Source: Catajapyx aquilonaris (Eukaryota). Taken from it: a DNA stretch of 64,000 bases. Positions within the stretch are counted from its first letter, which is position 1; each line of letters begins with the position of its first letter. The notes under the pieces were generated by a model. That model made no database searches. It was given only the letters and a program-made list of their open reading frames with translations, and was not told where the DNA came from. The DNA is taken from positions 1 through 64,000 of the forward strand of contig KZ538200.1 of assembly GCA_000934665.2 (NCBI GenBank). Direction: 5' to 3'. Below, in pieces: positions 12,894-55,622 of this stretch. Made by a program: the position numbers and the translations under genes.

Positions 12894-15800
12894 TCAGGTG
12901 GCCGTCTCTCCTCCTTGGTTTTTCCCACCACCACCACCACCACCAGCGTCCTTTTCGTACCCTTCCACTAGAGTCTCGATGATGAACTTGATGGCTATCT
13001 TGTATATGGACTCGACGTTCTCCGTGTATCGGTCTCCTAGGGTTGTCTTGACCGCCTCCAGGAACGGTTTCTCGATACGCTGCAATAGAGCACCATGTAT
13101 TTAGATTACGGTGCGGCCAGGAACACACTAAAGAACGCTGCCCTATTGATTTTCAATACGGAGAGATTGGCTCCAGGGACCTATAATTATGTTGGCGGGG
13201 TATGGGGAGGAAAGGGTGGGTATATACCATAACCCAAGTACAGAGGAAAAACGACTTCAAGTGCTTTCCTCTACGGTCTCATAATATTGAACAGCCTAAT
13301 CCTTAGCGGAAATAAACACATCAGAGCGGCCTCTAAAGGCCTCCATATTTCTCTAGAACGCATAAACGTCGGTATATAGTCCGTGTATACATAAGCACCT
13401 CGTTAAAGTTGTGCGAGTTGGAAATTTTGACAACAGATGGCGCGCCACCTGTCTCACGACTACATGTCGTATGTAGTCGTGAGACAGCCTGAGACGAATC
13501 TAGCTGGTGAGTGATTCTATACGTAAATCCTGCAAAAAGTAAAGCGTCACGTTATTTTCTGCCAGCACAATATTTGACCAGCAAACACGCGGTTGGTTGC
13601 GTACACTTTAACATTGATTTTCAAAACGGGCCAGCCATAGTACAGGCCGCTTGAAAGCAAAGTTCTCACTGTCAAAGAAAGACAGATATGAGCAAATGAA
13701 GCTCGAAGCGGCAGTGCAGCTCTCCCTTCATTTCGGCCCAACCGAAATCGGAGCTTTCATGTGGCCGTGAATAATACATGAGCTTACGTCCGAAACGAAG
13801 CTTAGGCCTTCCCTTCAAAAAAATTGTCCAAAATTATTTTTGCATTAAGCTGTGTACGTGGATGTACCCGGAAGGGGGAAAAAACAATTTCTCACAGCCA
13901 ATTAGCGATGATCTATTTACATTTCCTTAACTTGTGTTAATTTTCTTAAAAAATAATTATAGCCCATCAGTACTGAGTCTAGAAGTGCGGACTCCATGAA
14001 TGAATTGGGCAGTGACCCCCAGTGCCGAATCGTGCCAAATCCCACCGCAATGATGATTATTAATGGCTATCCGAGAGTACATTACACCCCCGTGCGACTC
14101 TGCAGGCGGAGCAAAAGTGAGAGGAAAGGCCCTGTGGCGCCGCCGGGGCGCCACCCGGTCCCTACTCTCGGATGCCAGTCCTGATATAAAGTGGGTCCAT
14201 TTGCCCAATTGCTCCAGGGGACCTTCATCTACCAACCCAGAAGAAGAAAACCACGTGCCATTCCTCACGCCTTTAGACATTCCGTTATATGCTAAACGGT
14301 CAGGACGTGTTCGGATCCTGCTGATTTGCAAATATAGTCCTGAAATTACTTAATTGCTAGTATTGCAGCAGCTATCCTGCTTAAAAAGCATTAATATATT
14401 AATAAGAAGCGTCTCGAAAAGATAATATCATTCCAGCCTGTATATCACGTCCAAATTGGATTAATTTTTCCACCATCCTCCTTACAAAAAAAGAAAATGG
14501 AAGGAGAAAAAAAAACCCACCCTGTACTATACTGGAGCCAAAATTGTAATTTCCCAACGGAGAGGGCTTCTGATTAAGAAGAGGAAATAATTCAATTGAG
14601 CTCACTCCCTGCAAAACGAGTTTCTTTAGATTGAAAGGCAGTGAGGCGGGATTACTTAATAGCAGTTTGCTCTTTCTATTACCGGTACTTGTAGATGTCC
14701 CACCAATCTAAAAGAAATCACTCGACTCTACTCATCGATGAATAGGAAATCAATTGCACTCCAAATCACCAAGGAATGTTGATGACATATTTTGTCCCCA
14801 ATAAAAAAAGTGAAACTCACCCAAAAATATTCCTTCTTGAATCCCTGGATGCGGCGATGCGAGGCCCCCGTCTGATGGAGGAAGTCGAAGAAGGTGTCGA
14901 GGTTGTCCAGGGACTTGATGCTTTCGTCTAACGTGGACATGACAGTCGTCGCGTGCTCGGCAAGCTCCATGCTTTGCGCCTGGGCCTCTTTGGTTTTCAA
15001 CTCGCGGAACTTCTCGAAAAGGCTCAGAAGTTCCTCGTGCTCCTCGAACAACCTGTCAAAAAATGTACGAGAGGGAATGACGTGATGGCTGAAGTATCGT
15101 GACATCATGCAAATCATCTCTGCGTTGAAGTTTTTCTTATATACACTTTTAACCATTTACCTTCTCTAGAGAGGGTAAGAAAGTGGCCATTTTTTACCTT
15201 ACATTGTAGGGTAAATATTCTTGGGTAAATTGATTCTAAGGTAAATTTTGCATGTATTACCTTAGAAAATAGAGGGTAAAAAATGGCCACTTTCTTACCC
15301 TCTCTAGAGAAGGTAAATGGTTAAGAGTGTATGGTTATTATTTATATGGATGAAGTATGTAACTGGTTGTTATAAAGCTGGAGCCAATCACAGATGGCCG
15401 CACACTGACTCTAGCCAATTAACGCGTCTTGCTTCCACCAATCCCTTCCGTTTCGCCCTGTCACACCCGTATAACGAGAACATGCACAGAACGAGCAATT
15501 ACAGAATTTCCATGAACTACACTTGGCAAAATATAGAAGAGGGGAAAAAACGCGAAAGCGTGTTTAGAACCCTTTCAATGCAGAGGTCTAGTTATTTTTA
15601 CCTTCAAAGTGAAAGGGAGAGCGTCCAATTATCTGCATGACACTACTACACCATTACCAAGTTTTCAGAACACTCTACAAAGTACCAACGGCGCTGACTT
15701 TATGTAAGTTAATTTATGAAATGAGGCTCTTTTTCCCCCATAGGAGCCTTTCAGTTAGGCCTGGTTAACGTTGCATAAAGCTACTCATACATCAGCATTA

Positions 15801-18800: not shown

Positions 18801-21800
18801 TAGAAGATTTTCAGCACTGGCTACAAAACAACCGGTATTTTCAAAACTAGTGTGATGGTGGGGGGTTCTCTCTAAACCCAAAAGGGGTACAGGAAGTCAT
18901 CCGGACACAAGAGCAGCCTTCTAATCTTGGAGACTAGATTCAAGTCAGCTTCCGAGCAAATCACGCGGGCCAAATTAAATCCGGGATGGCTTTTAGCAGG
19001 CTCTAGACGCCACTGCTTTCATTTAGGTACTCAACTTAAAGCAAGGCGAGATGAGGAACCCATGAAGAAGAAGAAGAAGAAGCTAGTGGTGTCTGGCTGA
19101 TCCCTTCTCTTGGAACATCCAGGAACAAGTGGGGTCGCCTGGCTCATTAGAATCCAAATGAGTGCATAATGTTCCAGACCATTAAGCGTTTCTTAGCATC
19201 ATGCAACTGCATTCGTTAACTATTCATCCGGCTTTCCGGTGTTTGCCCTAAACGCCAGACATCAATCCTGGTGTTGGAGGGCAGGAAATTAGTGTCTTTG
19301 CATAAATATTTGGCGCCATCAACAAAAAGGGGGGGGGGGGAGCAAAACACAGTTTACATTTGCATGGAAATTATTAATTAATTATTGATGTCGGGGCAAT
19401 GTAGCGGAACTAAAATAATTATTTAAAATTCAATCTGTGCTAGGCCCTTCCGGTGCGGGAAGCTCCCCTGAAATTTGTGCAATCATATTCGGATGAGCTG
19501 AAGTACTTTTTTTTATTTGCAATGTACACCACCTGACTTTTTAACTTTGTACATGGTGCAAGGAATGCATAATTAATACAGTAATATCTGTTCCACAAAA
19601 ATTTCAGAATGAACAGGAAAAATATTGCATGAACATACCCATTGATGATTGCATAATAGATCTTTAAAAAACATGATTTTTACGAGTGTTTAGCAAACCT
19701 AAAGAGAAAGCAATGAACCAATGCACCACAATTACACAATAAAATCTCGGCTTCCTAAACTATTCACGGGAGAGTAAAATTGCTCATTGCATGTGTGTAT
19801 CGGCACTAATAATTATACTCCCGGGGCCGTTTGTCATGGTGATTGATTACTCACCAAACGATATTTTAGGGAGATGAAAATGGAACATGAACAGTTCGCT
19901 GCAGGATGGGCAAAATCAATTTACTTTTAACTCTGAGGACATAAACAATCTAAAATTACCTAATTATGACGAAGCACAGTTCATTTCACATAAAAGCTGT
20001 ACTAGTATGATGAGGTCAAACAATTTTGTAGCACAATGTTCCATGGTAAAATACATTATAGGTGGCCTATAAGCCTATAGTTTTTTCCACTATAAAAATG
20101 TTCAAAGATCTTGGCTTCATTTTACGACCAGTTTTTTCCCATAGGTAACTGTGTGCATATAAAATTTTATCGCTCCCTTCAGTCCAAAAAGGAGACAAAA
20201 CTTTTTTAAAGCTCAGCAGACAAAGTAGTCCCTTCAGGCATCAAAGTCGCACAGTAACCTTACTTCATGGAAATGTCCAAAGACCCTTATTCCACTATGA
20301 AATTATTGTTCAAACACTAGAGTTTTTGTGTGTGTGTGTGATGTCGATGGGGGGAATGCGGGGGTGGAAGGAGGTTTCGGGGGAAGAAAAAGCAATGGTC
20401 GTTTTTCACTTCTTGGCTGGCTGCCTACGCTATTGGAAATGGCGCCAGAGGACATGGGCGCCGCCTTTATTCTCCTGAAAGCCCACGCCGTCGGAGCACA
20501 GAGCAGGTTCAGCTTTCTTAGCTCAATAGCACAACCATTTTGCCTCTATGCAGCAGCATACCAACACTGCTTCTGCAACTATGCACTGCCCCCTGCGGCT
20601 CATACGGGGTGAAACTATCCAAAATTGTAAATATACCAATCGATAGGCGGATGCTGCACGGCTGGGTGTCGTGTAAACAAGGCCAATTACAGTATTTGCT
20701 AGCTTGTAAGACCACCTGTACAAGCCAACCTCTACTGATTAGTTGGGTTTGTGTGAAGCTGGACTGGACCAGTCAGATCTAAAGCTGTGTTACCTACACT
20801 AAATATTTTAGAGAGGATTTTCCAGCAGTGCGCGTACAAATCGAACTGTCATTAGCAGGTTTTTAAAATATCAATAACAGGAGGTGGATGGAAAGTTTTC
20901 ACGGGCACAAAATGAGTGCTAAAAACGGAGATATAAAAATTAAACTCGAATGAAATCCAATCGGATTATGCACGTTTCATTTTGTTCCCGGATATTGTTC
21001 GGGCTGAAAACAGTTCATGGCCGTAAAATCCCCATTTTTATTTACGACCATAACGCCAGAACAGCCCCGGTTCCAAAAAGTGTCGTCCAAAATCTCCCAA
21101 TTCCTAAATATTTCCAACCAGACACATCAAGGCCGGCTCCAGCACCGTCAGCAACAGATTGACTGTCGTCAATTAATTCTTTGCGTCAAGGAAGAAAAGG
21201 ACGCAACCGTCTAGTGACGCACTTGCCGGATTGCCAATCCAATTTGGAGCCCCTTATTTGCAAGTTCTGGCAGAAGCTCTATAGACTCCGACATTTTTTA
21301 AACTTGTACTCTGCCGTCCCAGGAAGAAACACCCTAACTTTAAAACTAGTAAGGGTGAAAGTCGCATGCATGCCCTGCACTAATCCCACATGAGTCAGGG
21401 GGGATTAGTGGAGGGCATGCACGCGACTTTCACCCTTACTGGTTTTGGACATGGGTGTTTCTCCTTGAGACGGCAGTATTGTACATGAATATAATTACCG
21501 CACTGAAGATTTGTTCTAAATATTTTGTATATTAACTTTTTTCTACATAGCGACTTCCGTCTATATGTACCACCGATAAAGGTGTAAAGAGTGCATCAGG
21601 AAAAGGAGCTGGCAAGTGGTGACGGCGGCAAATCGGATTGGTTTCTCCTCGAGTCGGCCTTTAGCATTCAGAGTGGAGGAAGAGGATGCTTCTTGGCCTG
21701 CCATAGAAGGAAGAAGAGGAATCCTCTTCGTTTCGTTCCTTGCTGCTGCTGCTCCTCGGGGGATAGCCTATTTGCAAAGCCCGCCTATAGCAGGCGCGCC

Positions 21801-24800: not shown

Positions 24801-27800
24801 TCTACGAGAGTGGTCACTAATAGTTACCAATTACTTGCACTCATTTGATTACCGCATGCACTCTACGGGCAAGGCTATACTTTTCATCTGTCGCATTAGG
24901 CCGGAACAGACCCAAGTAAATTTCATTATCAATCGCAAAAACATATTGCGCGGTACAGCCGGATGTAATATCACTCTAATTCGTGCACGTGGAATGAGGT
25001 ATGGGCGGGATGGAGCTATAAAGTACGTGTAACAAGGTCCGTTTATTAAATGCAAGTGGTCACGCGGAATACTCGCAATACCACGAATTAATGACCTGTG
25101 GCTGCCCTTCCTGTCATGACCCTATCTGAGAGTTCCGGACATTCCTCCACATCCCTCATGTCATATAAGTTTATTACACCCCCCTACGATATTATGAGTC
25201 CAACGCAACAAGTCATCAAAAAGATGGGTATAGCCCAACAACAACCGGACCTACGACATCCCAATTCAGAGCACGATCGGCCATCTTTTCCACGCGATTT
25301 TCTCAAGTTATCCTCCAAACAGCCATTTTGGAGAAACCGCTCTCATAAATACCTATAAACGTCACTAGTTGACGCCTTCTCAAAATTGACCCATTCGGCA
25401 AATGAGCTTCAACAGTATCGATATCATCTCCCTAAAGGCGACAAGTAAGAGCTTAATAAAATCTTAAGAGCCTGGTAAAAGCCGACTTAGAAATGGAAAT
25501 CGACATCTTAGACTCACGCAAGTGTAAACCCCTTGGGTCCTTTTTGTCCCCAAATTTTTTTTGTGAATCCAAACCGATTGTTTAGTCGCACGCATGGCCA
25601 CAGACACTAATTTGGTTGCGGTCTCTGCCCTGCGCCCAACCCCTGTCACCGCTCATCACAAAATCGATACCCTGCTGCTGGACACCCTTTCCTCTTCGAT
25701 ACACACACAGCTTATGGCTTCTTCCAACCCCAAACATCGTGTATATCCAGCTGCTAATACCATTTGCATACAGTATCTTCAACAAAGGTACCCTACCACA
25801 TTTGGGCTATCCTTGCATGATGCAACCCATCAACCATGAATGACGCCAATCAGCAACTGTGCCACTTCTTCCTCCATGATTTCGTATAAGGTAGGCCCGC
25901 AGGGTCTCCAACTTTATGCTCGCGGGTGTACATGCGCCCAAGTAGCAACCAGCAGGTCAAGTGATTGCAACTGAGTTTCCTCATGAGACCACCAAGTTCT
26001 GCGTTTCACTTGAGAAGAATTTGGTGGGTGGGTGGGTGTTCCACCTTTGTAGGCACAAAGAAGGCCCCGGCTGCCATGCTGCGAGTGAGATCGATGCGAG
26101 CTACCTTTCTGGCCCGCAGAACACCTCAGAAGCTAGCTGGCTAACTAACCAACCCACCCACCCACCCTTTTTTTGGCAAAATGCCTTTCTCGCACAATCT
26201 TCCATCGGGTTTCGCAATATATATGTGAATGGAGCCTCCTTGAGAAAAGAAACTTGGCCACTTGGGAATGGAGAGAGCCTGCCACAGCCACGTGAGCTCG
26301 ACTGCTATACCAGGCTTTNNNNNNNNNCCCCCCCTATTTTTGGACATGAAAAGTGTCGGATATTCACTCCCAAGACTATCTGATGAACACGCTCCACATG
26401 GGGATACTCGAATAATGTCCAGAAAATCTATTAAATATTGGATCCATGTATCAGAGTTATAGACACGAAATCTTTGACCTCCCAGATTAATCTTTTTTTT
26501 TACTAGGAAAGAAAGTTATGGGTAATATTTATCTTCTGTGTATGGCTTGTAGCTGCTTGTAGTACTGTACTATATCATGGACTGTAATAGAGCCTGACAT
26601 ATACATATGCTGGGTAATTTAGTAGGTTACACCACGACCACTGTAAATGCCTAGTGGGATTAGAGCGAAAACAGGGAGTTACTTTGGATTCATAACAGTG
26701 GGTAGTCTTTACAACAATAAACCTGAAACGTGTTTCCATTACCTAGACATAATGCTTGCTGAGCAGATTAAAGCAGTGGCTCGAACTAACAGAAAAAAAA
26801 GTGCAGAAACACAACATACCTCATAACTCATACGATATTGTCTTCGCCTATATACCCTAATCCTATCATATAAGCCATTCCTTTGATCTTTACAGTTGTG
26901 ATAGAACATGTAAAAAATTCATGTGAGACAAACAAAGCAGGCCTATTTTTATGGCAAAGTCAGGTTTTAGGTCTTACGAAACAAGAGAATAGTACAATAA
27001 AATTGTTTGAAATTTATGTGTAAGATGGAACGGTATGAGAGGGTAAGCTACGGATTCATGTGGTAGTAATAACTACACAGAGTTCGTCGATTGGAGGTGA
27101 ATTATTACACTTTCCCCGTTTTCACTAATGCATCACTTATTTATGCAACTTGGGCCTCCATATATTAAAGTATTACAAAAATCATGAGCTAATCTATTAC
27201 CTTTTCAAATGGTCCAAATAAAATATCTCTACACATTATTTACGTAGCATAATTGTACTGTACACCCATGTTAAAACGTAATAGTGCCCTTATTTAATTC
27301 AATAAAGCGTTAATTTATCATACCAGTTTGGCCGTGGTTGCCTGCTAACAAATGATGTGAATTATTCATTACGTCATGCCAATTACTTTGCTTTATGTTT
27401 GTAGAGCTAAATTACGTGAGATAATATAGGACAACCATTTTCCCTTTACTTATTAGCCTTATCAGTTATCACCCACTCGACCCATACAGTAACACGTTGT
27501 TTCATCACTGTTATGTGTTAATTTCACTTATTTACTAAACATTCAATGAAGAAAACAATGTACTTCTTCATTACATGACAACAATTTTAAAGCGGCTTAC
27601 AGTATTATGTGCATTCTTCCTTAAGTCAATACTGTACAGTACACTGTATTTGTCCAAATATTTTCTAAAGTTAACTGCCTTTAATTCAAGTTTCATCAAC
27701 AACGCGGCACTAAAAACAAACTTCAGCGGATCCTTCCAGATTTAATAACAAGTCGCAACAATATTTAATGTGCACCCTGGCAGCAATCTGCCTTTAGATA

Positions 27801-30800: not shown

Positions 30801-33800
30801 GGCATACTCCAGAAAATTCCATTCACAGCAAAATGTCACGTGATTAAACCCCTTTTATATATATATATATAAAACTGGAATGAGGTCGAACATGGAAAAA
30901 ATGGGGGATGGAAAAAAATCGAAGGAGAGCCTTGAAAAGTTCTGACGTTTGCCAAATGAAAATGTACTGTAGAGAAAGTTTGCAACTGGGTATTTTTTTT
31001 TTCACCATCTCCCGTTCCTTTTTTTCTTCTGCCACGGCGACTCGAGGCACTTTGAGCTGGTACAATTCCCTCTTACAGACATTGCTCACTCCTAAAGCTG
31101 TTGGCAGCAGGAAGAAGAGAAAAAGTACTACAGACGGAGTCAAAAGGTATTGACTCAAAGCTCGAGCACTTACACACATTTTATTCTTCCGCTCTTGAAA
31201 GCCTAACCATCTACCCCGCCTCTTACAACCCCCTCGGTAATGCCTTTCAGATTACATTACAGACTCAAAACTGGAAGAATTGTGTGAGCAAATATCATTT
31301 GGACTGATTGAAAATCAATGTCGATTTTACGACTTCAGTGCGTGCAATAATGACATCAAAATAATGGAACACCCTATAGCATTGCATATTTTATTTTAAA
31401 AAAAACTATTGATGTGGAGATTGTCGCGGTGCTCATGAGAGCATCTGTTAACATATGCCACCTGCTTTTATTTACATGGAGGTAGCCTGTACCACGGGCT
31501 GTACAGTACACCAGTCTTGTGTGCACTCCACTGCAAACACCACCAGTGCATCAGCAACTTTTTTTTGTGTGTGTGAACATGTCACACTCGGGCTATGTTC
31601 ATTTTGTAGCAACAGTGCTGGAGTTAAATTCCGAGCCTCAAAAACGCCACAACAATACTTATTGACCAGAATGTTGGAACTAGCTTAAAGTTGTTTTCAT
31701 CGTCGTGTATGTAAATGGCTGGCTGATAAAATATCACTGGTCGACTATCGATTGCTGTTGCTTTTTTCCCCATGTCTAGGACAACATTTCAAAGGAACTT
31801 TTATTTTTTACTGAGCTTCCACTCACAAGAGATCTAGTACAGTTACGCTTTTTGATTTACGACCTTGTCTAGCATTTTTTTCGTTATACTTCATTCCTCC
31901 AAGCAACTCCGGAAGACGTTTGGGCTTCCAAGTGCTCTGTATTGTACTTCCGTGGGGATATAGAAGGATAAGCAGAGGAACGTCTCAGAAGATAGCAAAA
32001 CCTTTGGCTATAGTCGAACCCCCCCATAATTCAAAGGAGAGGTTTACTTTCGGACCAGTTCGCCTTGATAATACCCCCAGTCGGATTGTCAGTAAAATGT
32101 CAGGAGTGACGTTACAGATTGCTGGAGAATGGTTAAAAACAAACTTGATTAATGTTTCACCTTTTGTTTATCCAGGAAAATGAGATTTCCGTCTGGGGTT
32201 AGTTTCCTCAATTTCGACGTAATTAACCCTCCCGGTGTTTTATAACCACTTCCTCACTGCCGATTTTATCACAACACCTCTACGTTACGAAACTGACACG
32301 TTCACAATAATTCTCCCGCAAATCTGCCCGTTTGATTAAACTTTATCCAAAAATTTATGCTTTTCAACTTCCAAGTTCTAACCCGGCCCAAACCGTTCAG
32401 AAATGTCATCCAACAGCCAATAGCAGACGACTAATCCTGTAACAGCATTCATTATTATGACAACAATGGTCATAACTTAGGGCTGATGGTTATACACACC
32501 ATGGCCTTTTTCCGAAATAATTTTTTTAAAATGCAATTGCAGTATCTTTGCGGCTGGATTTTGGTGTGTGTAATTCTAGACCTACTGCTTCAGGCCCAGA
32601 CGCTTTTTGCTAATCCAACCCTTCAGTGTCAATATCAGTCGCAAAATCCGACCACTTTCCAAGCGGCCTTAAATTTTCACCTTCCTTATATTTTTTTGCA
32701 GGCTACATGCTTTTAAGGATTGTTAAACATACGCACAGCAGGTAACAAGAAGGTTTTCAGTCTGGCTGTCATTCTCCTGTAGGGCCTTAATAATCTTTGA
32801 CCGCCGCAAGCCGCCATAAATCTAGCTTTTGTATGTAGAGCAGGCATGGAAAAGTCTGCTTCCGCTGAGCTCTGTGACAAGAATAGGCTTATAAAGGCTA
32901 TGAGTTAGTGCATCGATTGAAGGGAGGGGGGGGGGGGGGAATCCACCGTATTATGGTGCCTGCACTTTCCTTGGATGAAAAAGCTTCGTGGCTTTTCCTG
33001 CAGCCCAGAAAGCTCCCTTGTTTGCCCTTCTTCCCAGGATGCAAAGTTTGTTGTCAGGTGCGCATATAGAACGTGGGGGGGCACCAGCACTTTGATATAA
33101 TCCAGCCAGATTTTATGACCATACTTCTTACAATAGAGGTGAGTATTAAGCTAGCTTGAAACTTTCCCGCGTCGTAAAGTCAGCTAATTGCGCAAGCGCA
33201 GGCTCAAAATTCAATTGCATAAGCTATAGCATAATACTGTAGTAAGTACCAAATAAATATTACAAATAATGCAATTAAGGCCTTGATATTACATAACGCA
33301 TATGACGCACAACAACGCTTTAAAAATCCCCCTGAAGGTCATGACATGACCTGTTATGCAGTAATCATGCTATTACTTTATAATAAATCACCCCCTGTCT
33401 AAACCAAAAACTAGCAATTAACATCCCCCACTGCTAAAGTCGGCCAATCAAGACAAGCAAAACGCAACGCTTTTCATTAATTAAACGAACCGAACTTAGC
33501 AGAATTTCCCCCCAAAATCCTCTGTAGCTCTCTACAAATAGAACTAACCAGCATTCTGAGCATAGAGCCCCCCCCCCCNNNNNTTCCCCACAGACTCATT
33601 ACGCCCCTATTCTCCCCATGAAAATGGCTGCCGGTCTATCCATCATTAGCCCTGGAAATCAGGATGTGGTAGGAAAAGTCAAGTAAGGAGGGGTTATTAC
33701 AGAGTCTATTTCAGATCTATCCAAAATTGTTGGGTGTGGTCTACTCTCTCTCAATCCCATATCAGATTTTGTGGAAAATGTCGCCGGTATTTTGCCCTCG

Positions 33801-36800: not shown

Positions 36801-39239
36801 ATCCGGATCGCCGAGTCCTCTTGTGTGTATAGAAGGGGATGGAGGGTGCAGGGAAAAGGGGTGGTCGGAAGGGCATAAAACGGACCATTCTCTAACACCC
36901 GACATTCCTCTTGGAGAGGACTGCATACATTCCTTACCCGATCCTTACCATCAAGTGAAAAGACCCTCAGTGAATATAGCAACCTCATCTGGCGAATTTC
37001 TCAGAAGTGTCCTTGGGGTCATATCTTGTATATAGTCCAAATATGACACTAATTTCAATAGATTTTCTCGAGGCTTATAACCTGGGTGGGCATGGTTTTT
37101 TTTACGGTTACATCTGATCTGATATTTAACATTCGAATGGGTATGCGCTTATCCCCTGCATACAATCTACTCGACTTTCCCTTTGAAATGTGTTGGCGTA
37201 GATTCAATTTTGCTCCGTACACAATTTCTTTGATCCGTCGTCCTTGTTTCAGCTTCAATCCTATCAGCTCCTCCATTCATCTCCTCTAACCCTCTCAACT
37301 ATTTCCATAATATTCGTTCCTCCCCCTAATTCCTTATCTCTCTTCCTAATTTCTTAAACTCGGCATGTGCTCCATTTTTGATCTTCGTGTAGCTGAATAT
37401 TACTCTTCCAGACTAAGCCCACCCACCTCCCATTCCATTTGTTCTGTTTTATATGCCCAAGGCCTGAATATCTCCACCAAAGCACCATTAGGCACGTTAA
37501 ATGTATGGGTGTCTCATTTGCTTTACACCCACTCCTAGTTCATAAGTCATAAATAAAGTACAATTCATAATAATTCCAACTTTCCTGGGTACGGAAATGT
37601 TGGTGCTTGCAAACTGACTAAGTTTCTTCGTCCTACGTAGTGTTGATTAACAATGCATAGGGCGGCTCAATTAGAGCTGTATAATCAGTGGCTGGAAACA
37701 ACCTCACGTTTGTGAGCAACGTCGCGTCCAAAATGCGTGTAACAATTGAGAAAGGTTGATATTGTCGCTGTATACCGTCGCGCAGTAAAAATAAGTAAAT
37801 TATTCATGTCGTTCCGCTGCTTGTTCCCTCTTGAAATGTCACGTTGCCCTCTACCTACTTAACTAAACTAACGTTATTCATAATTAATTGCTGGCTAATT
37901 TTACCATCCACTGGTCACAACACGCACAACGTCCCCTCAGAATACAGAATACGTATCTCCTGTTTAGCTGAAACTAGGATGACCTATTTCACTTTCCATT
38001 TTACGGTGTACTAACAACAGAATCCAAAGATAACCGGGAGCAAAATGTTTTTTATACCCAATTTGGCACCCATTCCTATACATATTCGTGTGATTGATAT
38101 GTAGCGAAATATTGGACACCTAAGCAAGTCGCTGACCTCAGTCAGAAAAAGAAAATTACATTCATTACTATTTAATAATGTTAAAACAGTTTGGATTCTA
38201 TTTTAGGTTGGACTGTAAGCCTATGTAATCAAATTAATTATGGGAGCATTTTAGCCTCGATACTGTGTTATTCTTTCCATTAGGCTAAATTATTGTGTAA
38301 ACACCGGTAACAGTAATCTAATTACCCTAATTATTTCTATCTTATTAAAGGTTCCAGCAATATTCCGACCCTAGGACCTATTAAATAAGGTCATTCTATT
38401 CTACAACATTTGTATGGCAGCCATCTTGAATCCCAGCACAAAAGATGAAGCCTGCAGCTCGGAGATAGAACAATACGAATTATCGGAATTACACCTCGTT
38501 CTCACGAATACGTTATCACCAACCCTCATCACAAAACGGTTGCCCTTCCCGGAAAAAAGTGTGACCTTATTCACGTTTCGGTCAATCACACTAGAATTTA
38601 TTGTAAGAAAAATGGTCCATTAGGGGGGTGGAATACCACCTCAGAAGCCATATTTACCTACAGAGTAATGATGGTTGCATAGCCCCAGGATACACCCCTA
38701 CTATTATGACGCAATCCTGCAGATGAAATTGTACTGCTGTACCCCCCCCCCCCNNNNNNNNNNNAAAAAAAAAATCACACAAATGGTCCATGACAGTAAC
38801 TAAAATCAGGACCAATCCATTCTGATGCTGGATGGCTGGCACCTCGTTGAACCTCCATGTTCGAACCCATTTCGATTCTCTCGATTGATGTGTTCATTCC
38901 TTACATCCGTTAAGTTAGACTTAAATCCAGAATCAGCTTTAATCCGTACCTTTTGGTGGGAAACTGTGGCCTCTTATTCTTCACTATCTCTCATCCCTCA
39001 CCCCCCTCCATCCCAAACTAACTAGACGTGGCCGTTTTGCAGTGCCAATCGATAGAGAAGCAGCTGAGCTCAGGTCGCCTGCATGAGAATCGTACTTTGC
39101 TGCTGATGATTTTGCTTCATCAGGACCTAGCACTGAAGAGACCAGGACCACCTGTGCAGGCATCAGGCGCCCAACCCATATGCAAATTAGCGCCAGACCT
39201 CACACCAATATTATGATCAAGGTCAGCCACAAACTCACC

Positions 39240-45300: not shown

Positions 45301-48300
45301 GGAGACCTAAATCTGACGCCGAAAACAGAAATTGGATACAGGTCTACAGTATATAAGCTTACCACTTTTTTCACGGCATTTTCTACTTTCTACCTCTATT
45401 ATCGTTTATTATAGTCAGAAGTCCGCCAACATTCTGCAGTTGTGACCACCATGGCAAGAAACCTGGGTGTCCGGCCTTGAAGTCATCCTGACCACACTGC
45501 AACCCAAGTGCCTCAATTGTTCGCAGCAAACCCCAACAAGCAGGGGCAAGCGCCAAGGACACGTGACGACCAAAAGTAGAAAATACAAAATGTTCAACAA
45601 TTAAAATATTTAACGCATTAATTTAATAAGCGGAAAATTGATATCTATATCAGTACATAAAAATGGCGGTAAGTAGCGAACATCCCATCGATGTCGACTT
45701 CATACACTTGTACTTATGTAATTAAATCCCTTTAATGTTTTAAAAATTCAGCCCATTCCTCCTTAGTCATCAAGCTTACCCTCTACCGCAGCAGCCCTGC
45801 CCCAGCCTTACTCCTACTTAACGTCACAACCTGATTAAGGGACTTTGTTCAACTCCATAATTATGCCAATTTCACGTTTCCCTCCGCATAAACCGTAATT
45901 TGACTCTCTGCACCTGTAACACAATTCATCATCAAACTTTCACCAGCCGTCTACACACACCCCTGCCGTGTGCAAAAGGGCTAGAAGCAGGCAAGGGCTA
46001 GGATTGGATGAGCCACTTGAGTTTAATGGTCAGGCTACCCGTGAAGCTAATTAGACGCCCTGACTACGTATATAATTCTTCACTGGAAAATTTTCCAACT
46101 GCATGACCCAAACGTGTGCAAATGGGGATCGATCTCCTTTCCCTCAAATCTGTCCACGGTTATCAAGCCTAATATTCTTCCCGTGCCTGGCCATCAATGT
46201 AATTGTCTCTCGCATCCGATTTCCTGTGGGTAGAGCCCGCGTCCACTTTGCGGTGAAAAGCCGGACTCTATCACAGTGGCCGGGTCCAATCCAACTGTGT
46301 CCAAAGGGGAGGTGGGCTGGGACATATCCGAGCTAATTCGACTTATGGGGAACATTTTTAACCATTACGCTCGGTTGGGCTTGCTCATACCTGGAAATGC
46401 TGAATACGCAGATTGATATTGATACTGACGTGTAATTAGCACTCGTGCGTTCAAAATTTTACATTTGTATTTAACCCAGATATGCCTAATGTCCTACATA
46501 CAGTCCTGTAAGCGAAAAAACGATCTGACGTCACCCCACCCATGTTTGTGAGCATGAGCAGTAGTATGCTTGACCGCCTCCACCTGGGTCTTCCATCCAA
46601 TCATACCCCCGAATAGCTCTGCAAGCATATTACTGCGCATGCGGCTGGTGTGACGTCAGATCGTTCTTTGGTTTAACGGACTGTATTTGTTAAAGGGACA
46701 CTCCACTCAAAAAACAAGTGTGGCTCTAAAAATCGGCAAAAAATCCTGAATCCGAAGGTGCAATTTGTTTTTCGCTACGCGGAACGGTAATCCCAGGGCG
46801 AGGGGTCAAAGTGGGGAAATTCAAATAGTGCGCTAGAAGCTGGTCGTCCGCCAGCGACGCCCTCGGGACCTTGGGAACTGGAGGGCTGCTCCCGCCTGCC
46901 TGCGCGCTTAGGCCCATCCCAGAGCGGTGCAGCCCTCCAGTTCCCCTGTTCCCCGCGTGGCGGCGCCGGTCATTAGCAGATGACACACTTTGACACCTAG
47001 CCCTGGGATTACCGTTCCGCGTAGCGAAAAACGAATTGCACTGTCGGATTCCAGATTTTTTGCCATATTTTTAGAGCCAAATTTGTTTTTCGAGTGGAGT
47101 GTCCCTTTAAATTTGTACTCATTATATTTGTTCAAATATTTAACAAAAAATAATCAAGTAGTCCCTATGCCATATATGGCACGGCTAGCTCATCAAAATT
47201 TCACAGCAGCTAAGTAAATAATTATTGCACTCTCACTTCATCCCTGCAATAATGTCGCTTACAGCACCACCCTTCCGTGCAAGACAAAAGGACTAGATTA
47301 TTCCACAGCACCTCCCGTGCAACTAATTAGAATCGCAGCTCCTTTTAACAGGAACCCTGCTAGGTTCTCGCGGAGGAAATACTGTACAGTTCTAATGCGG
47401 AAATGCTTCTAATTGGAAGCACGAATCTTAGGTTCGGATTTGGGTTTATCGTGCAACGTGATGCGGTTACCCCAGGGGCTTTGACTTTGGCATCAACTTG
47501 CACATACTGTCCTAAGGAAAACCGCACCTAGAAAAGGAGGACGTACCGGAACTACCTGACTGTACATGCTGCGGTTGTTTCACACCCAGTTTACTAATTT
47601 TTTTTTGAAATAAATATTACGAAACACCCTGTGCGCGCCTTGCCAGGATATCGTCTTTCCATCTTGCATATGACTCTGACAGGTCCTATCTGCCTAAAAA
47701 TCCAATCCTAGTTTGACACTCGCAATTCCCGTACTGTCAACTCTCCAGCAATTGTCGTACAGCTCAGTTTGAACGATCGTTTTGCCCACAGGCAAGCAAG
47801 TGTCGGTAAATTCCCTTCCGGTGGTCGTTAGTCACGTCATGAGTCCTGCCTTCTCATCCTTATGTTGACTTTGGGCTTCCAAGCACGCGGAAAAAGATGT
47901 TTCCTTACACCAGAGCGACAACCCGTGTTTGACTTCAGGGCCTGCATTTATGAGTTGCTAATGGCTCCTTGACAACCGACACTCTGGAATATTGGCTTGG
48001 TTGGGGGGGGGGACTGAAAAAACTGTTACCTACATAAAAGCTAAAACGCTGCAGAAGGTTCAAATCAATGAGAAGAAGTTAAAATCATCTTGGTTCCAGC
48101 TGTTCCCCGGGCCTAATTTTCGCTAATTCGCTACCAAAACATCCAAGCACGAGAGGAGGGGTAATTTTATACTTGAAGCGACTATACGGTTATTTTCACC
48201 AAATGGAAAAGAGGATTTTAAAAGCTTGGAGCTATCTCATCAGCAGATTTACACTACAAGCGTCTACTCCTTTTTCTCCAGACAAACGTCCCACAGAATG

Positions 48301-51300
48301 CAAATATTGGCTCGAAGCTCACCCTACTTTTAATTAAGAAACTCTCTTCCATCCTTCAGCTTGACACACAAAAAAATTTAGGCGAGCAGGGAACTGGAAA
48401 TATTAAACTCAGCATTGTTGCCGAAGTGTGCTACAGACAGTCCAATTAAATTAGTATGATTTGTTTAAATTTTTCTTTTGCAAGCAATGATTTCCGATTG
48501 GACCAGCACTTCAAACAATTCTGTTCCATTTGGAATTATCCAGCACTTAGAAAATGAGGCTAGCAGCACCAGGCTATTGCGGCCAATCATCTCGACTGGT
48601 TCGGAGTAAAGGTCGTAATTGAATCGTTAGTTTCCATCCAGAACACAGTTGGGACAACAACGCCCCAACCCAACCCACCCAAAAAAAGTCTTTTCAATCC
48701 TCTCGAACATTATTACTCAAAATCTCATTACAAGCGGCTGGAACCCAATGTAACGAGTTAATCGGACTGCTGATTGCCAAGTTAGCCAAGGCTTCCTACT
48801 ATTCAATTAAAAAATTTGTGTCAAAGTTAATATGCACGTGTCATTACTATGCAATGATGCCAGTCGATAAACAGTGTCGCAACACATCTCGACAACCAAA
48901 GCTGAAAATTCGGCGAGGATTCTGATTAATTATGAAAATATAGCGGCGGTCGCAGTTGTGACGCAATTAAGCCCCCCGTACCCATACCGTCGCTAAGAGG
49001 CCGTGCATGCCAAGTACGACTGTTCATTTGCACCCCCCAAAACATGGTAATAAGTTTGTATGGCGGCAGAGTCAGCAAGTGGAGCAAGTAGAGTTGGAAC
49101 TACCCCACTAGTCCTATTCTGTGGAGTGGATGAGTCTCCATAGCAACCCGGGGAGTAAAAGGGTGTGGGGGATGGAGGGGGATGGAAGCGGGGAGAGAGA
49201 GGCCCTCTCCTCCTCCTCCTCCTCCTCCTCTCTGGTCCGCCGCAGGGAGGCTGCGATGGAAATGGATGACGATGATGCCATGGGACCTCAGTGTGGCTAC
49301 CCTTACTTATGTATGCCGACACCTTCCCCTGTTGCCTTGGGGACTCATCACTGCTACCTGTTTCGCCCAACGACCTGTACTTATAACACATAGCCTAAGA
49401 TATACAGGGTATCTCATAACGCATCTCACACCTCTCAGCTTCAGCACCTGATAATATAAGCAGTATGTGCGATCTAATGGATTTGGACAAAAATTGCGCA
49501 GTGGGTACATCACATATGTAGAATTCACTGGTGAGCTTAAAAAGATGCACTTCGCAGCCATTTTTGAGATATGAGTGACAGCAGATTCAGCATATCAATA
49601 TGCTGGATCTGCTGTCACTCATATCTCAAAAATGGCTGCGAAGTGCATCTTTTTAAGCTCACCAGTGAATTCTACGTGTGTGGTGTACCCACTGAGCGAT
49701 TTTTGTCCAAATCCGTTAGTGTCACATCGCGGCCTTCCCTTGTAAGTGCAATTTTTAAGTTCAATATTCCCATTTTCGATATTGTTGCCGTATCGATTTT
49801 CGACGCACAGCACATATGACCTGCCTAACCTGGTTTGGTGGTACGAGCCAATTAGAGACCATGTTGCCCTTATATATTTCTGCTGACATATCCTGTGCGC
49901 TCGAAAATAGTTTCAAGATTTTTTTCCAAGATATGAGCCGTTCAGAGGGATAGTCTGAGACATAAAGGTTCAGAGGTGAGTCCGCCGGAAGCCACAACTT
50001 TCGCCTTGACACCTTTTGTTGGCACGAAACCACCCCCAATCGGAGCTTCTGGACCAAGGCCAGGGAGGAGGAGGAGGAGGAGATGGGGGTGGAAAGGAGG
50101 GAGGAGGGAAGTATGACCTTCCTGGGCTTTATCGCTGCCCACGACCTAAAATTAAGTGCCTCTCGTGTCACTGGCAAAAGTCTGCTGACAAAGGATCTGT
50201 CGCGTAAGCAACCTTTTCTCGTGGGTGGGGTGGGCCTCTCTCACAACCCCTGCCGCATATCAGGTCCTTGCCTCCATGGATGATTGATGATGAAAAATTA
50301 TGCAGAATTTTTGAGAGACAAAAGCTAGGTTCCCACATTAACGTTGGATCAGAATTAGTCCAAAACAGTTTGATGCAGCCTGAAATTCAGCATGGTTGCT
50401 CAACCCCGTTGCTCAACCGTTACAAGTATCAACACTGTCCAACTAAATTAACCCAATTCTCGCTCGTCCACCCGATGTCGTCCAGTCCAGCGGGTCAACC
50501 CTTTTCGCAGCGATATTTGCATTTCAATTTGCACGTGCATTCTTCTGTTGCCATTTCCAGTTGCTCCAGATTGGAGGTCTAATCACATAGAAAAGTGGCG
50601 TGGATGCCAGGCGTGAAATCTCCTGGAAAGGTGTCAAAGTAGGTCGCGAGATCACTGCGGTTGTCGCTCAGACGACGACTTCATCCTCCTTTCAATGGCA
50701 ACAAGTGCCATTCAATTAAGGAACATGGTAAGATTTTCACTCAACAGCCTTCCCACAAGACCATGGTTTTCCCCACTGAACAATTCAGTTTTGTCATGTT
50801 TTACCGCTTGAAATGGTTAAACTTGGGTGTTGTCTTGATGGAAAGGACTCTGGAGATTCTGTAGGGGTCCAGCTGGCCTTTCGCCAGCTCTCTGCATTGC
50901 GACGTTTCTGCAGGAATTCCTTTTTCTGCAGGCAAAAATCAGGGTCCTTAGACCGGACCTACCTACCAACCGGTTTTCCCGACACCTGTGGATCCTATTC
51001 AGAGGGGGGGTCCCAGTACGCTCATTTCCAACTGACACTAACAGGTTGCAATGCCACTCAAACAGATACGTGGGTCCCTAACAACGCCCCTGATGAACAT
51101 AGGATCGATCCACCATGCCGGCTGTCACAATTGGTCTGGACCTCGAACGAAGATGCTGAACTCTGAATAACGATGTGCTGATTGCTCGACCATATAGTAT
51201 TTTTTTTTATAGCCATATGATATTAGGAGCGGTCGATACCGGATAGCTGTAATAGCGGAAAAGTGATTGCCAATTTCCTGGTCGATTCGTCACGTAGCTA

Positions 51301-54300: not shown

Positions 54301-55622
54301 CGGTTTGCAAATCACTGCCGGCTGTGCCTCTAGCCTTGGGCTGGGATTGGGTTACACTACTTTTTTTTCTGATTGGGAGATTTAACGTAACGACTGTAAC
54401 GTGAATAAGTAAATCGATTTAGGCTGTAAGACACGTACAGAAGAATCACTGCGATAGGTTCAGAACATCAGGTCTGAATTGCACCATTGTGACTTCAAGG
54501 TACAGGAGTGTCTAAAAATTATTTATTGTTTTAAATTTTTTAAATTCGAACTTGTTTTTAGTGGACAGTGTGCATTCAGATTTGTGGTCAGGATTATATG
54601 GGTATAGCAAACATAAATGTTGATCTGGGAAAGTTTATGGGCGCAGTGGTCCCATCCTCGCGATCTCAATGCATAATCCTAAATATCGACCCAGATCCTA
54701 GTGCGATTTTAAGCCATTTTTTTCCCCAGGGTTGAACAAGTGCACTAAAGTGCATCAGAAGGAAGTTAATTGCATTTGCTAAAAATTTCCGGGAAAGGGT
54801 CCCACCTTTTTGCTTCTCTCTCGATATGTTCCCCTGGTTATTCTCCACTTTCCCGCATAAAACCCAATTACGTTTATTATGTTCCTGAAAGCTGCAATTT
54901 GCGAGGCATAATCAAACGTTGTGGTCTTGCTCGTTGGTTAATAACATTCATAGTCGATGGTCATATTCTGTTGGCGGGTTCGTAGGGGTTAAGAAGTTTG
55001 GCCTTCTCCTTACATCCCTCCTGCTTACTAATGGATTCATCCCTAGCCTAAAGGGTCGGAGTAATTATAATCGACTGTCAGCAACTTCTGTGACAATACA
55101 ACTACCGGGAAGCCCCAGCACAATAGCCAGCACTTACTAGAGCGTGTACTGCCATCAGATGAAACGAAATGAGCGGATTTCGGCGAAATATTCGCATAAA
55201 TGTGCTTTCAGCCAATCAGACGGCACTATTGCCGATTTTAACCAATCAGAAGTCATGATTGAGCTTTCAGCCAATCAGAACACTGTTGCGCTCTCAGCCA
55301 ATCAGAAAGCACTGTTGCGCTCTCAGCCAATCAGAAGCCAGGTTTGCGCTTTGAACCAATTAGAAAGCAGAGATGACACTAACTTGATAAACATGGTGAC
55401 ACCAGTGGACTCCATGGCTCGGTTGATCCCCTTCCACGAGGCGATGATGGAATACTTCTGCTTGGCCGACAGCGGTAGTCGAGGGTCGGTCTTGGGTACA
55501 GTTGGCGCGGGAAGGGCCAACTCGTCGTCACCTTTGGCCCCACCCCTGCCCTTGGTCTTGCCCTTCCCCCCTGGTCCGCCCCTGGGACTGTCCTCCCCGC
55601 TCTTGCACATCTGGCAGCCCAT
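12894..55622 (-). CDS. GbXL: Globin X-like (N-acylated, neuroglobin-like) protein, 218 aa; coding exons 55622-55384, 15052-14821, 13079-12894
   Basis: Exon 1 is MGCQMCKSG...DPRLPLSAKQKYSIIASWKGINRAMESTGVTMFI-K with a phase-2 intron (B12.2 position). Exon 2 is LFEEHEELLSLFEKF...LAEHATTVM...GASHRRIQGFKKEYFW (CD1 Phe, E7 His, F8 His) with a phase-0 intron (G7.0 position). Exon 3 is RIEKPFLEAVKTTLGDRYTENVESIYKIAIKFIIETLVEGY...*. The split codon AA|G joins exons 1 and 2 in frame. N-terminal MGCxxC is an acylation motif. Confidence 0.93.
13449..13487. repeat. Short perfect hairpin (17-bp arms, 5-nt loop) in globin intron 2
   Basis: ctgtctcacgactacat-gtcgt-atgtagtcgtgagacag. Confidence 0.85.
15144..15329. 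mobile_element. Foldback MITE with about 55-bp TIRs and TA target duplication (Tc1/mariner-type)
   Basis: 'ta|cacttttaaccatttaccttctctagagagggtaagaaagtggccattttttacc' ... 'ggtaaaaaatggccactttcttaccctctctagagaaggtaaatggttaagagtg|ta'; one mismatch between the arms. Confidence 0.85.
16960..17020. repeat. Perfect 61-bp palindrome (29-bp arms, 3-nt loop) with a third partial arm copy at about 17058-17080
   Basis: ttaatgaagtgcttgaaaaagtgtagcca-tat-tggctacactttttcaagcacttcattaa; downstream 'gtgcttgaaaaagggtagccaa'. Confidence 0.9.
17645..17762. mobile_element. Small MITE remnant with 15-bp TIRs (piggyBac-like TTAA flank on one side)
   Basis: Left 'cctcctgagacccct', right 'aggggtctcaagagg|ttaa' (one mismatch). 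The left flank is CTAT instead of TTAA. Confidence 0.5.
21311..21476. mobile_element. Foldback/hairpin MITE, about 166 bp, imperfect full-length inverted repeat
   Basis: 'ctgccgtc..gaaacaccc..agtaagggtgaaagtcgc.tgcatgccct.cactaatccc' pairs with 'gggattagtg.agggcatgca.gcgactttcacccttact..gggtgtttc..gacggcag'. Confidence 0.8.
26319..26327. other. Small assembly gap (N-run) next to a poly-C tract; similar gaps at about 33579-33582 and 38754-38764
   Basis: N characters adjacent to C homopolymers. Confidence 0.95.
36041..36108. repeat. Tandem duplication of a unit of about 33 bp
   Basis: 'acacaaacacactcttcaaatagggagcagttgg' occurs twice in tandem. Confidence 0.85.
37130..37400 (-). mobile_element. 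Possible highly degraded non-LTR retrotransposon (RTE-like) 3' remnant
   Basis: Purine-rich minus strand gives fragments such as GEERILWK* and LKQGRRIKEIVYG, loosely resembling the C-terminal end of RTE-clade ORFs. Broken by stops and frameshifts; weak. Confidence 0.25.
39241..39329. repeat. (TAA)n microsatellite, about 30 units with one interruption
   Basis: taataataa... run; it produces the spurious poly-Ile ORF 39180-39473. Confidence 0.97.
46501..46683. mobile_element. MITE with about 35-bp imperfect TIRs and TA target duplication (Tc1/mariner/pogo-type)
   Basis: 'ta|cagtcctgtaagcgaaaaaacgatctgacgtcac' ... 'gtgacgtcagatcgttctttggtttaacggactg|ta'. Confidence 0.75.
46694..47106. mobile_element. 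MITE, 413 bp, about 120-bp TIRs starting AGGG, TTAA target duplication (Kolobok/T2-like)
   Basis: 'ttaa|agggacactccactc...gtttttcgctacgcggaacggtaatcccagggc..ggtcaaagtg' and the mirror arm 'cactttgacacctagccctgggattaccgttccgcgtagcgaaaaac...gagtggagtgtccct|ttaa' surround a GC-rich core. Confidence 0.88.
49474..49719. repeat. 246-bp near-perfect palindrome (122-bp arms, 2-nt loop, 7 mismatches)
   Basis: Arm 49474-49595 is the reverse complement of 49598-49719 without indels. The centre is '...cagcatat-ca-atatgctg...'. Confidence 0.95.
55204..55366 (+). repeat. Minisatellite of six CCAAT-box units (period 27-30 bp)
   Basis: '(ag/aa)ccaat(c/t)aga' with CCAAT starting at 55212, 55242, 55271, 55298, 55327 and 55356. 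Confidence 0.9.

Follow-up and report, generated by a model that had tools for sequence, protein, structure and literature searches.

The 246-bp palindrome in the first intron of a Catajapyx aquilonaris globin gene is best read as an inverted duplication, specific to this locus, of a single truncated repeat copy, neutral, with a coincidental polarity of its arm differences; we give this reading a probability of about 60%. The palindrome lies in a stretch of 64,000 nt (contig KZ538200.1, positions 1 to 64,000 of the forward strand; here called the window). Its parts, assigned from the arm search, the mismatches, the states of the repeat family as outgroup and, for the last, contig pieces and loose ends, are as follows.

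49474–49595, no strand: left arm, putatively a truncated copy of the repeat fragment in inverted orientation
49596–49597, no strand: 2-nt spacer CA at the palindrome axis
49598–49719, no strand: right arm, putatively part of the resident repeat copy
49720–49747, no strand: apparent continuation of the repeat past the palindrome to the end of the family

A repeat search returned two arms of 122 nt each that are 94% complementary and separated by 2 nt, and 7 of the 122 positions are non-complementary, exactly as the first-pass annotation had described the hairpin. Chance is ruled out as the source of the palindrome: a 41-nt arm segment was expected 0.00 times in shuffled sequence and is present in the two arms only. 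The palindrome does not extend outward, since local alignment of 49400–49473 with the reverse complement of 49720–49800 scored 10, a score reached or exceeded in 495 of 500 shuffles, and 49720–49747 has no counterpart to the left of 49474, where the flanks are non-complementary. We also considered and rejected a wider inverted arrangement enclosing the hairpin; matches there are confined to tracts of (CCT)n and (AGG)n (49203–49238 and 50051–50101), and with these masked the best alignment is 11 nt. We found no Pfam family in the three open reading frames examined across the arms and no tRNA-like structure of the kind that heads a SINE with ARAGORN in 49300–49900. An arm motif resembling a tRNA A box was given no weight.

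The host gene is on the minus strand and has the following parts.

55384–55622, minus strand: globin exon 1, coding part, starting MGCQMCKSG
15053–55383, minus strand: globin intron 1, 40,331 nt, with donor GTTAGT at 55383 and acceptor AG at 15054–15053
14821–15052, minus strand: globin exon 2, Pfam Globin match of 51.7 bits against a cut-off of 22
12894–13079, minus strand: globin exon 3, coding part including the stop codon

The closest relatives of the encoded protein are arthropod "neuroglobin-like" proteins. The hairpin lies inside intron 1, 5.66 kb from the donor, and its + strand is antisense to the globin, as first annotated. From this position, minus-strand transcription across the hairpin is likely.

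We examined the copy number of the arm in Logan contigs of four DNA sequencing runs (X1–X4), all from one sample in one study, possibly the sample used for the assembly. Contigs matching the arm at 85% identity or more numbered 118, 117, 112 and 110 in X1 to X4, respectively; those of run X1 were distributed as 12 at 99% or more, 14 at 95–99%, 36 at 90–95% and 56 below 90%. Summed depth was 18–31 in the flanks and 547–4530 in the arm bins, a quantity that does not equal copy number. The arm is part of a multi-copy interspersed repeat and its flanks are single-copy. A fifth run under the same species label contained almost none of the words of this stretch and was left out. Within the window there is no further copy of the arm, as sensitive blastn returned the two arms and chance matches of 11–16 nt. 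Public collections gave no match to the family either: a 24-mer search had none in metagenome, prokaryote-genome and viral contigs, and a 25-mer search had none in metagenome contigs.

The form of the family was read from contig pieces and loose ends and not from whole copies. Other copies align on to 49740–49748, 28 nt past the right arm, and the loose ends behind 49743, 49747 and 49748 show low mutual agreement (0.40–0.57). At the other end, they depart from the palindrome "before" 49601/49606 into different sequence, in which their mutual agreement is 0.64–0.80, and the innermost 8 nt of each arm (49588–49595 and 49598–49605) are where other family copies cease to match. Contigs of 511–613 nt match 49480–49585 only and are unlike the window on both sides thereafter. 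Judged by likeness, the two arms are sister copies, each being the closest relative of the other among more than 100 contigs: they are 94% alike, compared with 10–16 differences per 85–116 aligned nt to other copies. Both arms also depart from the family majority at the paired sites 49516/49677, 49535/49658 and 49537/49656, so that at least three derived states are common to both.

These observations bear on a rival reading that we regard as quite improbable, in which the hairpin is just one more copy of a foldback element or palindromic miniature transposon and the arms are the element's own terminal inverted repeats. The multi-copy arm and the near-perfect hairpin do resemble those of foldback and MITE-like elements, and there are other short-spacer palindromes in the window (for example 21296–21494, with a 1-nt spacer). 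Sub-threshold Rfam matches to microRNA families also point that way, although they arise only because the hairpin is perfect: the best, to MIR400, reached 49.6 bits against a gathering threshold of 83 and was alike on both strands, and this and the other candidate families (mir-5728, mir-577 and others) were rejected as all below the gathering threshold, with no match at gathering score in the whole window. Unlike a foldback element, however, this family has, to judge from contig pieces and loose ends, other copies that exit at the palindrome centre into different, mutually conserved sequence, with no symmetric inverted arms among them; it runs on to about 49747 with no mirror on the left, where the arm is without the terminal 28 nt. 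Nor is there a convincing target-site duplication, as the two 8-nt stretches that flank the arms are identical at 5 positions. A TA lying just within the ends belongs to the inverted repeat itself and is uninformative on this point. That copies leave the palindrome at its centre and run 28 nt past the right arm, together with the derived states shared by the arms against the family, argues for a local duplication and not a foldback element. The first-pass annotation had allowed that the hairpin could be one of many copies of such an element; this holds for the arm, which is multi-copy, but the palindromic form looks locus-specific.

Least credible of all is a misassembly, in which the scaffolding of short reads wrongly fused two copies of the repeat, or a single copy read twice, head to head. 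De Bruijn graphs collapse inverted repeats longer than the k-mer size, and the window contains three short runs of N, typical of gap-closed scaffolds. Among the 32 contig pieces listed of 457, none bridges 49580–49627 to give the arm junction independent confirmation, which says nothing either way. Against a misjoin, independent contigs run without a break from each arm into its own single-copy flank (48700–49579 for the left arm; 49628–50500 or 49714–50500 for the right), the bins at the centre have contig cover, and the arms are closest to each other among the contigs. They also differ at seven sites, and therefore neither was copied from the other by software.

The seven differences, located by script, are the following.

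T in the left arm, G in the right arm: 49478/49715, 49495/49698, 49510/49683, 49515/49678, 49517/49676, 49587/49606
G in the left arm, A in the right arm: 49498/49695

The list agrees position by position with the six T/G differences and one G/A difference first annotated, and three of the six T/G differences are at CpG sites, where 49715, 49698 and 49676 are the G of a right-arm CpG. We polarised the changes with the family as outgroup, that is, with contigs of one individual, each placed at its best-fitting arm. The left arm is derived by C>T at the CpG sites 49478, 49495 and 49517 and by T>G at 49498, and the right arm by + strand A>G at 49678 and 49683. In run X1 the family has A at 49683 in 20 of 20 contigs (depth 2471.6/2471.6) and A at 49678 in 12 contigs (depth 1554.1/1688.3), the window having G at both sites, and C at 49517 with a depth of 2007.6/2570.8. 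For 49695, 49698 and 49715 the family states were taken from the absence of variant rows in run X1 despite the highest cover there, which is not proof. Site 49587 is probably a further derived C>T of the left arm, the family state at 49606 being set solely by where contig alignments begin. The three CpG sites are still C/G in the family and thus the left-arm T is derived there, which bears out the earlier suggestion that CpG deamination explains part of the pattern.

Among the six T/G pairs, then, three are left-arm C>T, a fourth is probably so, and two are right-arm A>G. The one-sidedness remarked on at first is a real count of 6:0, but it is not a one-arm event and reaches nominal significance only (two-sided binomial 0.031); the one-sided G-U pattern exceeds chance only weakly. 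Three other palindromes in the window have 10 G/T and 8 A/C mismatches, and there is no general G/T bias of palindromes in the window. We rejected as unsupported the idea that a mutation bias tied to transcription produced the polarity: the + strand has an excess of C over G and of A over T that is equal inside and outside the globin gene, and the C>T and A>G changes seen on the + strand go against it. A simple model of strand-biased mutation in keeping with this skew therefore does not predict the 6:0 polarity.

Under the preferred reading of a local inverted duplication, the inner end of a truncated repeat copy, together with about 8 bp of adjoining sequence, would have been duplicated in inverted orientation over about 122 bp. 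The parent would be a moderately abundant, unclassified interspersed repeat, and the site the 40-kb intron 1 of the globin. To judge from the anatomy, the most likely route would be template switching of the snap-back or fold-back kind while the DNA was being replicated or a break was being repaired. Passages on fold-back and strand-switching models describe an inverted duplicate that adjoins its template with a very short spacer (PMC3907307, PMC10766183), and the inverted duplicate beside its template with a 2-nt spacer is alike in this respect; the duplications treated there, from human and yeast, are copy-number variants of kilobase to megabase size, in contrast to 122 bp with 5.7% divergence here, where the mechanism is inferred. 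After the duplication, neutral drift would have brought the arms to this 5.7% divergence, and the six G-T pairs would be a mixture of left-arm + strand C>T, three of them CpG decay, and right-arm + strand A>G, their common polarity being most likely a coincidence. Once the intron is transcribed, the minus-strand RNA would fold as a 122-bp imperfect duplex, a passive potential substrate for Dicer or ADAR. We judge the hairpin to be ordinary, and probably neutral.

We then considered what RNA from this locus could do. Both strands are predicted to fold as a single long stem, with a minimum free energy of −218.3 kcal/mol for the + strand (z = −31.6) and −194.3 kcal/mol for the minus strand (z = −35.5), and in neither case was any of 200 shuffles as stable. 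In line with the initial description, the mismatch list and the predicted folds have the + strand RNA keep pairing at 121 of 122 stem positions, six of them as G-U, and turn the same six pairs into A-C mismatches on the strand of the globin pre-mRNA; there, they appear as single mismatches or small internal loops.

It is conceivable, though somewhat unlikely, that the hairpin is a candidate endogenous siRNA source, hpRNA-like or Mu killer-like, with siRNAs of about 21 nt acting in trans against the roughly 100 repeat copies. The transcript would be the globin intron or an antisense + strand RNA; this reading concerns function and is compatible with an origin by local duplication. A long inverted repeat that is predicted to fold as one near-perfect intramolecular 122-bp stem from either strand, arms homologous to a multi-copy repeat elsewhere in the genome (110–118 contigs per run at 85% or more) with no target within the window, a place within a transcription unit and the pairing kept on the + strand at all six T/G mismatches all fit such a source. 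By contrast, one lost pair in a 122-bp stem should barely affect dicing, and selection is therefore a weak explanation of the polarity; some of the derived changes are ordinary CpG decay, we identified no transcription unit on the + strand, and no Rfam family matched at gathering score. Arms of 122 bp also lie at the short end of described hpRNAs. The premise that hpRNAs are rich in G-U pairs found no wording to that effect in the hpRNA literature that was text-searched.

Precedents can be found in passages on the Drosophila simulans hpRNA (PMC10317233) and on maize Mu killer (PMC3440606). In the former, hp-ODox2 is an hpRNA with inverted-repeat arms of BS2/Jockey transposon sequence that gives siRNAs antisense to BS2/Jockey, hpRNAs can be born inside existing transcription units, and what defines them is the production of 21-nt small RNAs that depend on Dicer-2, together with a primary transcript that is stabilised in dcr-2 mutants. 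As described there, Drosophila hpRNA loci resemble this one in the long intramolecular inverted repeat, in possible transposon-type arms and in their place within a transcription unit; they differ in that small RNAs define them, whereas this locus is known from DNA, lies deep in an intron and has a 122-bp stem. We found no discrete transcript for the hairpin. Mu killer is described as a partial inverted duplication of MuDR for which read-through from a flanking gene is proposed, and our locus likewise appears to be a partial inverted duplication of a dispersed-repeat fragment placed where host-gene transcription can read through, which would yield a hairpin RNA with homology to the dispersed family. 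According to those passages, however, Mu killer is a hairpin of about 4 kb with transposase sequence and demonstrated silencing, in contrast to a 122-bp non-coding fragment of an unclassified arthropod repeat known from DNA.

A second use of the RNA, as a candidate ADAR substrate in the globin pre-mRNA in which the six A-C sites are preferred or the whole duplex is hyper-edited, seems to us rather unlikely. The predicted minus-strand fold has the double-stranded structure of such a substrate, with its six A-C pairs as single mismatches or small internal loops, and A-C mismatches favour ADAR editing, a property widely used in guide-RNA design. ADAR favours a 5′ U or A and disfavours a 5′ G; against this preference, the six adenosines have a 5′ U in one case of six and a 5′ G in two. 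Editing in an intronic repeat hairpin would also have no obvious effect on the globin mRNA. Of the original proposal of an hpRNA or editing substrate, the structural premises and CpG decay as part cause survive; the one-sidedness is not confined to one arm and is nominally significant only (6:0, 0.031).

That the one-sided G-T decay is genuine, through a selected + strand hairpin RNA or through strand-specific mismatch repair, is in our view highly improbable. In the first case, a + strand Mu killer-like hairpin RNA would police the family of about 100 copies and its pairing would be kept by selection. In the second, extrusion of the hairpin on one DNA strand would expose the arm differences to mismatch repair, and G-T mismatches on the extruded strand would be erased efficiently while A-C mismatches survive; the palindrome would then bear a strand-specific mark of its own "self-correction".

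If the neutral local duplication is right, the hairpin is one more repeat-derived intronic palindrome, useful mainly as a worked case of a striking "all wobble" pattern that, with the repeat family as outgroup, breaks down into changes in both arms. The family to which the hairpin belongs thereby provides the test that the first-pass annotation had proposed. A strand-specific decay signature in palindromes, if true, would bear on the survival of long inverted repeats in genomes. If siRNAs were shown, this would be a case from a non-drosophilid arthropod of a transposon fragment becoming a trans-acting hairpin in a host intron, a stage of hpRNA birth that is seldom caught.

The inverted repeat at 49474–49719 comprises two 122-nt arms (49474–49595 and 49598–49719) that an inverted-repeat search of the window reported as 94% complementary with a 2-nt spacer, and a script count gave 7 non-complementary positions out of 122. 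The first-pass annotation had described these arms, the 2-nt loop, seven substitutions (six T/G and one G/A) and three CpG sites, and all are present exactly as it had them.

Mismatches between the hairpin arms (left-arm position/right-arm position)
49478/49715: T in left arm, G in right arm; right-arm G in CpG
49495/49698: T in left arm, G in right arm; right-arm G in CpG
49498/49695: G in left arm, A in right arm
49510/49683: T in left arm, G in right arm
49515/49678: T in left arm, G in right arm
49517/49676: T in left arm, G in right arm; right-arm G in CpG
49587/49606: T in left arm, G in right arm; not CpG

The outer edges of the hairpin are sharp: no complementarity was found between the sequence left of 49474 and that right of 49719 (local score 10, reached or exceeded in 495 of 500 shuffles). 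A 41-nt arm segment matched only the two arms in the window, with 0.00 matches expected from shuffles. Plus-strand RNA folded into a single stem of −218.3 kcal/mol (z −31.6; 0/200 shuffles folded as well), and minus-strand RNA formed the same stem broken at the A–C positions (−194.3 kcal/mol, z −35.5; 0/200 shuffles as stable). The hairpin is far beyond chance and, since both folds beat all 200 shuffles, each strand is a strong hairpin, with the wobble pattern contributing the 24 kcal/mol by which the strands differ. A (CCT)n tract (49203–49238) and an (AGG)n tract (50051–50101) flank it in inverted orientation at ~240 and ~330 nt; once these tracts were masked, no more flank-to-flank complementarity was found.

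The hairpin lies 5.66 kb into the first intron of a globin gene. A minus-strand open reading frame running downward from 55622 begins MGCQMCKSG, and all ten relatives found with it carry a Pfam globin domain; those named are 'neuroglobin-like' or 'neuroglobin' of insects (stick insect, beetles) and horseshoe crabs, with one 'hypothetical protein'. By these relatives alone, the source is an arthropod and probably a hexapod. The N-terminus MGC... (55384–55622, minus strand) presumably resembles the N-terminal acylation motif of membrane-bound globin X-type proteins. With the ten relatives as queries, tblastn placed three coding blocks in the window (55526–55377, 15066–14821 and 13079–12945) whose residues abut, so that no exon is missing. 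We drew the gene model by reading the exon junctions.

Globin gene model
55622–55384, minus strand: exon 1; donor GTTAGT at 55383
55383–15053, minus strand: intron 1, 40,331 nt; acceptor AG at 15054–15053
15052–14821, minus strand: exon 2; Pfam Globin 51.7 bits, cut-off 22
13079–12894, minus strand: exon 3, stop codon included

As had been proposed, the plus strand of the hairpin is antisense to the globin pre-mRNA. The intron holds three short N runs (26319–26327, 9 bases; 33579–33583, 5 bases; 38754–38764, 11 bases), which mark the assembly as gap-closed scaffold sequence. A further palindrome in the same intron (21296–21494; core arms 21342–21393 and 21395–21446, 1-nt spacer, ~97 aligned columns with gaps; 4 G/T and 3 A/C mismatches) has the appearance of a foldback or miniature-transposon-type element, and an inverted repeat 2.4 kb from the hairpin (46690–47110; arms ~46690–46898 and ~46920–47110, 187 aligned columns, G+C-rich core; 4 G/T and 4 A/C mismatches) resembles a miniature transposon. 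Another inverted repeat (15141–15332; core arms of 65 nt with 94% complementarity and 62 nt between them) sits ~90 nt upstream of the exon 2 acceptor (15053) when read along the gene. Downstream of the globin gene, minus-strand open frames at 4905–8846 (1061 aa, with adjacent 142 and 177 aa) encode numerous ankyrin repeats with an Ion_trans domain after them; they have the look of a TRP-like ankyrin channel gene whose coding region is mostly free of introns. A tandem direct repeat at 80–369 has two units of 138 nt that are 84% alike, their starts 152 nt apart.

A similarity search of the 64 kb found no further copies of the arm. We then used Logan contigs of four DNA runs (one sample, one study, possibly the source of the assembly itself), placed on 48700–50500 at 85% likeness. 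The number of contigs matching the arms was, run by run, 118, 117, 112 and 110; in X1, one of these runs, 12 were ≥99% alike, 14 were 95–99%, 36 were 90–95% and 56 were <90%. The hairpin flanks were covered by a single contig at depth 18–31, and the arm bins had summed depths of 547–4530, a figure that is not a copy number. These contigs indicate that the arm is part of a multi-copy repeat, of which roughly a hundred variants can be told apart. Near the hairpin, run contigs differed from the window by T>G at 49412 and TAAA inserted behind 49396, and in some runs by single bases at 49750, 49790, 49804 and 49950; these differences are probably a second haplotype.

The contigs further indicate that the palindromic form does not belong to the family as such. 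Past the palindrome's end at 49719, sequence from other copies continues to 49740–49747, and the loose ends behind 49743, 49747 and 49748 are mutually discordant (agreement 0.40–0.57), which looks like an element end near 49747 with unique DNA beyond. The left flank holds no mirror of 49720–49747 in the complementarity test. Before 49601 and 49606, other copies depart into different sequence that they share among themselves (agreement 0.64–0.80), so the family element appears to continue inward where this locus folds back, and contigs of 511–613 nt match 49480–49585 only, with both sides beyond unlike the window. The arms differ from other copies by 10–16 per 85–116 aligned nt in the pieces shown, against 7/122 between themselves, and at three site pairs both arms depart from the family. 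By this evidence the two arms are sister copies.

Site pairs at which both arms differ from the family (X1 depth)
49516/49677: family G 2484/2571 on the left, C 1589/1688 on the right
49535/49658: family A 1058/1301 on the left, T 773/903 on the right
49537/49656: family G 1149/1301 on the left, C 839/903 on the right

We infer that a truncated copy of this unclassified repeat resided at ~49606–49747 and that segment 49598–49719, its inner part plus ~8 nt beside it, would have been duplicated in inverted orientation, adjoining itself across the 2-nt spacer, through template switching of the snap-back or fold-back type at an end that had broken or stalled. Such a switch fits because the inverted copy abuts its template across the spacer, the palindrome axis falls where family homology ends, and AT-rich, self-complementary bases lie innermost. 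Fold-back-type models are described, in the excerpts of PMC3907307 and PMC10766183, for inverted duplications far larger than this locus. It is unlikely that the hairpin is an assembly artefact: although no bridge over the palindrome centre appears among the contig pieces shown, independent contigs tie each arm to its own unique flank, and seven sites distinguish one arm from the other.

We polarised the mismatches with the repeat family as outgroup, using X1 figures, with which the other runs were concordant. The family has A at 49683 in 20/20 contigs and at 49678 at depth 1554/1688, making the right arm derived at both (A>G on the plus strand). At 49517 it has C (2008/2571) and at 49676 it keeps G (only 74/1688 differ), giving a left-arm C>T at a CpG. 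Variant rows were absent at 49695, 49698 and 49715 despite the best-covered bin and several pieces spanning these sites well from piece ends; such absence is not proof, and the right-arm base is most likely the family state there, so the left arm probably carries the derived changes: T>G at 49498, and C>T in a CpG at 49478 and 49495. The weakest call is 49606, where family alignments start with the window's G, which suggests a non-CpG C>T at 49587 in the left arm. In total, the left arm has four C>T changes plus one T>G, and the right arm has two A>G; read on the plus strand, the six transitions all run C>T or A>G, with no case of G>A or T>C. Because both arms carry derived changes, the one-sidedness does not reflect an event in one copy, such as editing or deamination. 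CpG observed/expected in the globin intron is 0.76, so some CpG decay is expected, and the wobble-only decay most likely combines CpG decay in one arm with A>G changes in the other.

By strand symmetry, a transition between arms is equally likely to leave a G–T or an A–C pair on a given strand. The 6/6 polarity has a probability of 0.016 one-sided and 0.031 two-sided, before any correction for its post hoc discovery. A general plus-strand bias is absent in the window: its remaining inverted repeats of ≥50 nt, three in all, were realigned with gaps, and their G/T to A/C ratios are 4:4, 2:1 and 4:3 (total 10:8). On the plus strand C exceeds G (skew −0.05) and A exceeds T (skew +0.02), alike in the intron and outside the gene; the hairpin changes remove C and add G, against this skew, so the mutation pressure behind it does not explain the polarity. 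Selection for pairing is a weak explanation, as a 122-bp stem should be little affected by a single A–C mismatch. Coincidence is the most likely explanation of the 6:0 polarity, leaving a slight probability that a real effect lies behind it.

No Rfam family reached its gathering score in the window. The sub-threshold matches on the hairpin, the best being MIR400 (49.6 bits, threshold 83), scored alike on both strands, as any perfect hairpin would. No Pfam family was found in open reading frames across the arms. ADAR prefers A–C mismatches, with a 5′ U favoured and a 5′ G disfavoured; the adenosines at the six A–C mismatches have the favoured neighbour in 1/6 and the disfavoured one in 2/6. The earlier suggestion of an hpRNA or editing substrate is partly supported, as a candidate only, in that both strands form hairpins and CpG decay explains part of the pattern; the polarity is not a one-arm event.

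If intron 1 is transcribed, the minus-strand RNA contains a 122-bp imperfect duplex. According to the excerpts of two papers, the Drosophila endogenous RNAi pathway is able to dice long hairpins (PMC12553114), and the marks of an hpRNA there are small RNAs that depend on Dicer-2 and a primary transcript whose level goes up when dcr-2 is mutated; BS2/Jockey transposon sequence makes up the arms of at least one hpRNA, and some hpRNAs were born within existing transcription units (PMC10317233). The word 'wobble' occurs in neither paper, so the two give no confirmation that richness in G–U pairs is characteristic of hpRNAs. Maize Mu killer is, in the excerpt of PMC3440606, a partial inverted duplication of MuDR for which read-through from a flanking gene is proposed. 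The anatomy here is like that of hpRNA loci and Mu killer at an early, perhaps functionless stage. The most likely account is of a palindrome peculiar to this locus, derived from a repeat and neutral, within a very long intron of the globin gene.
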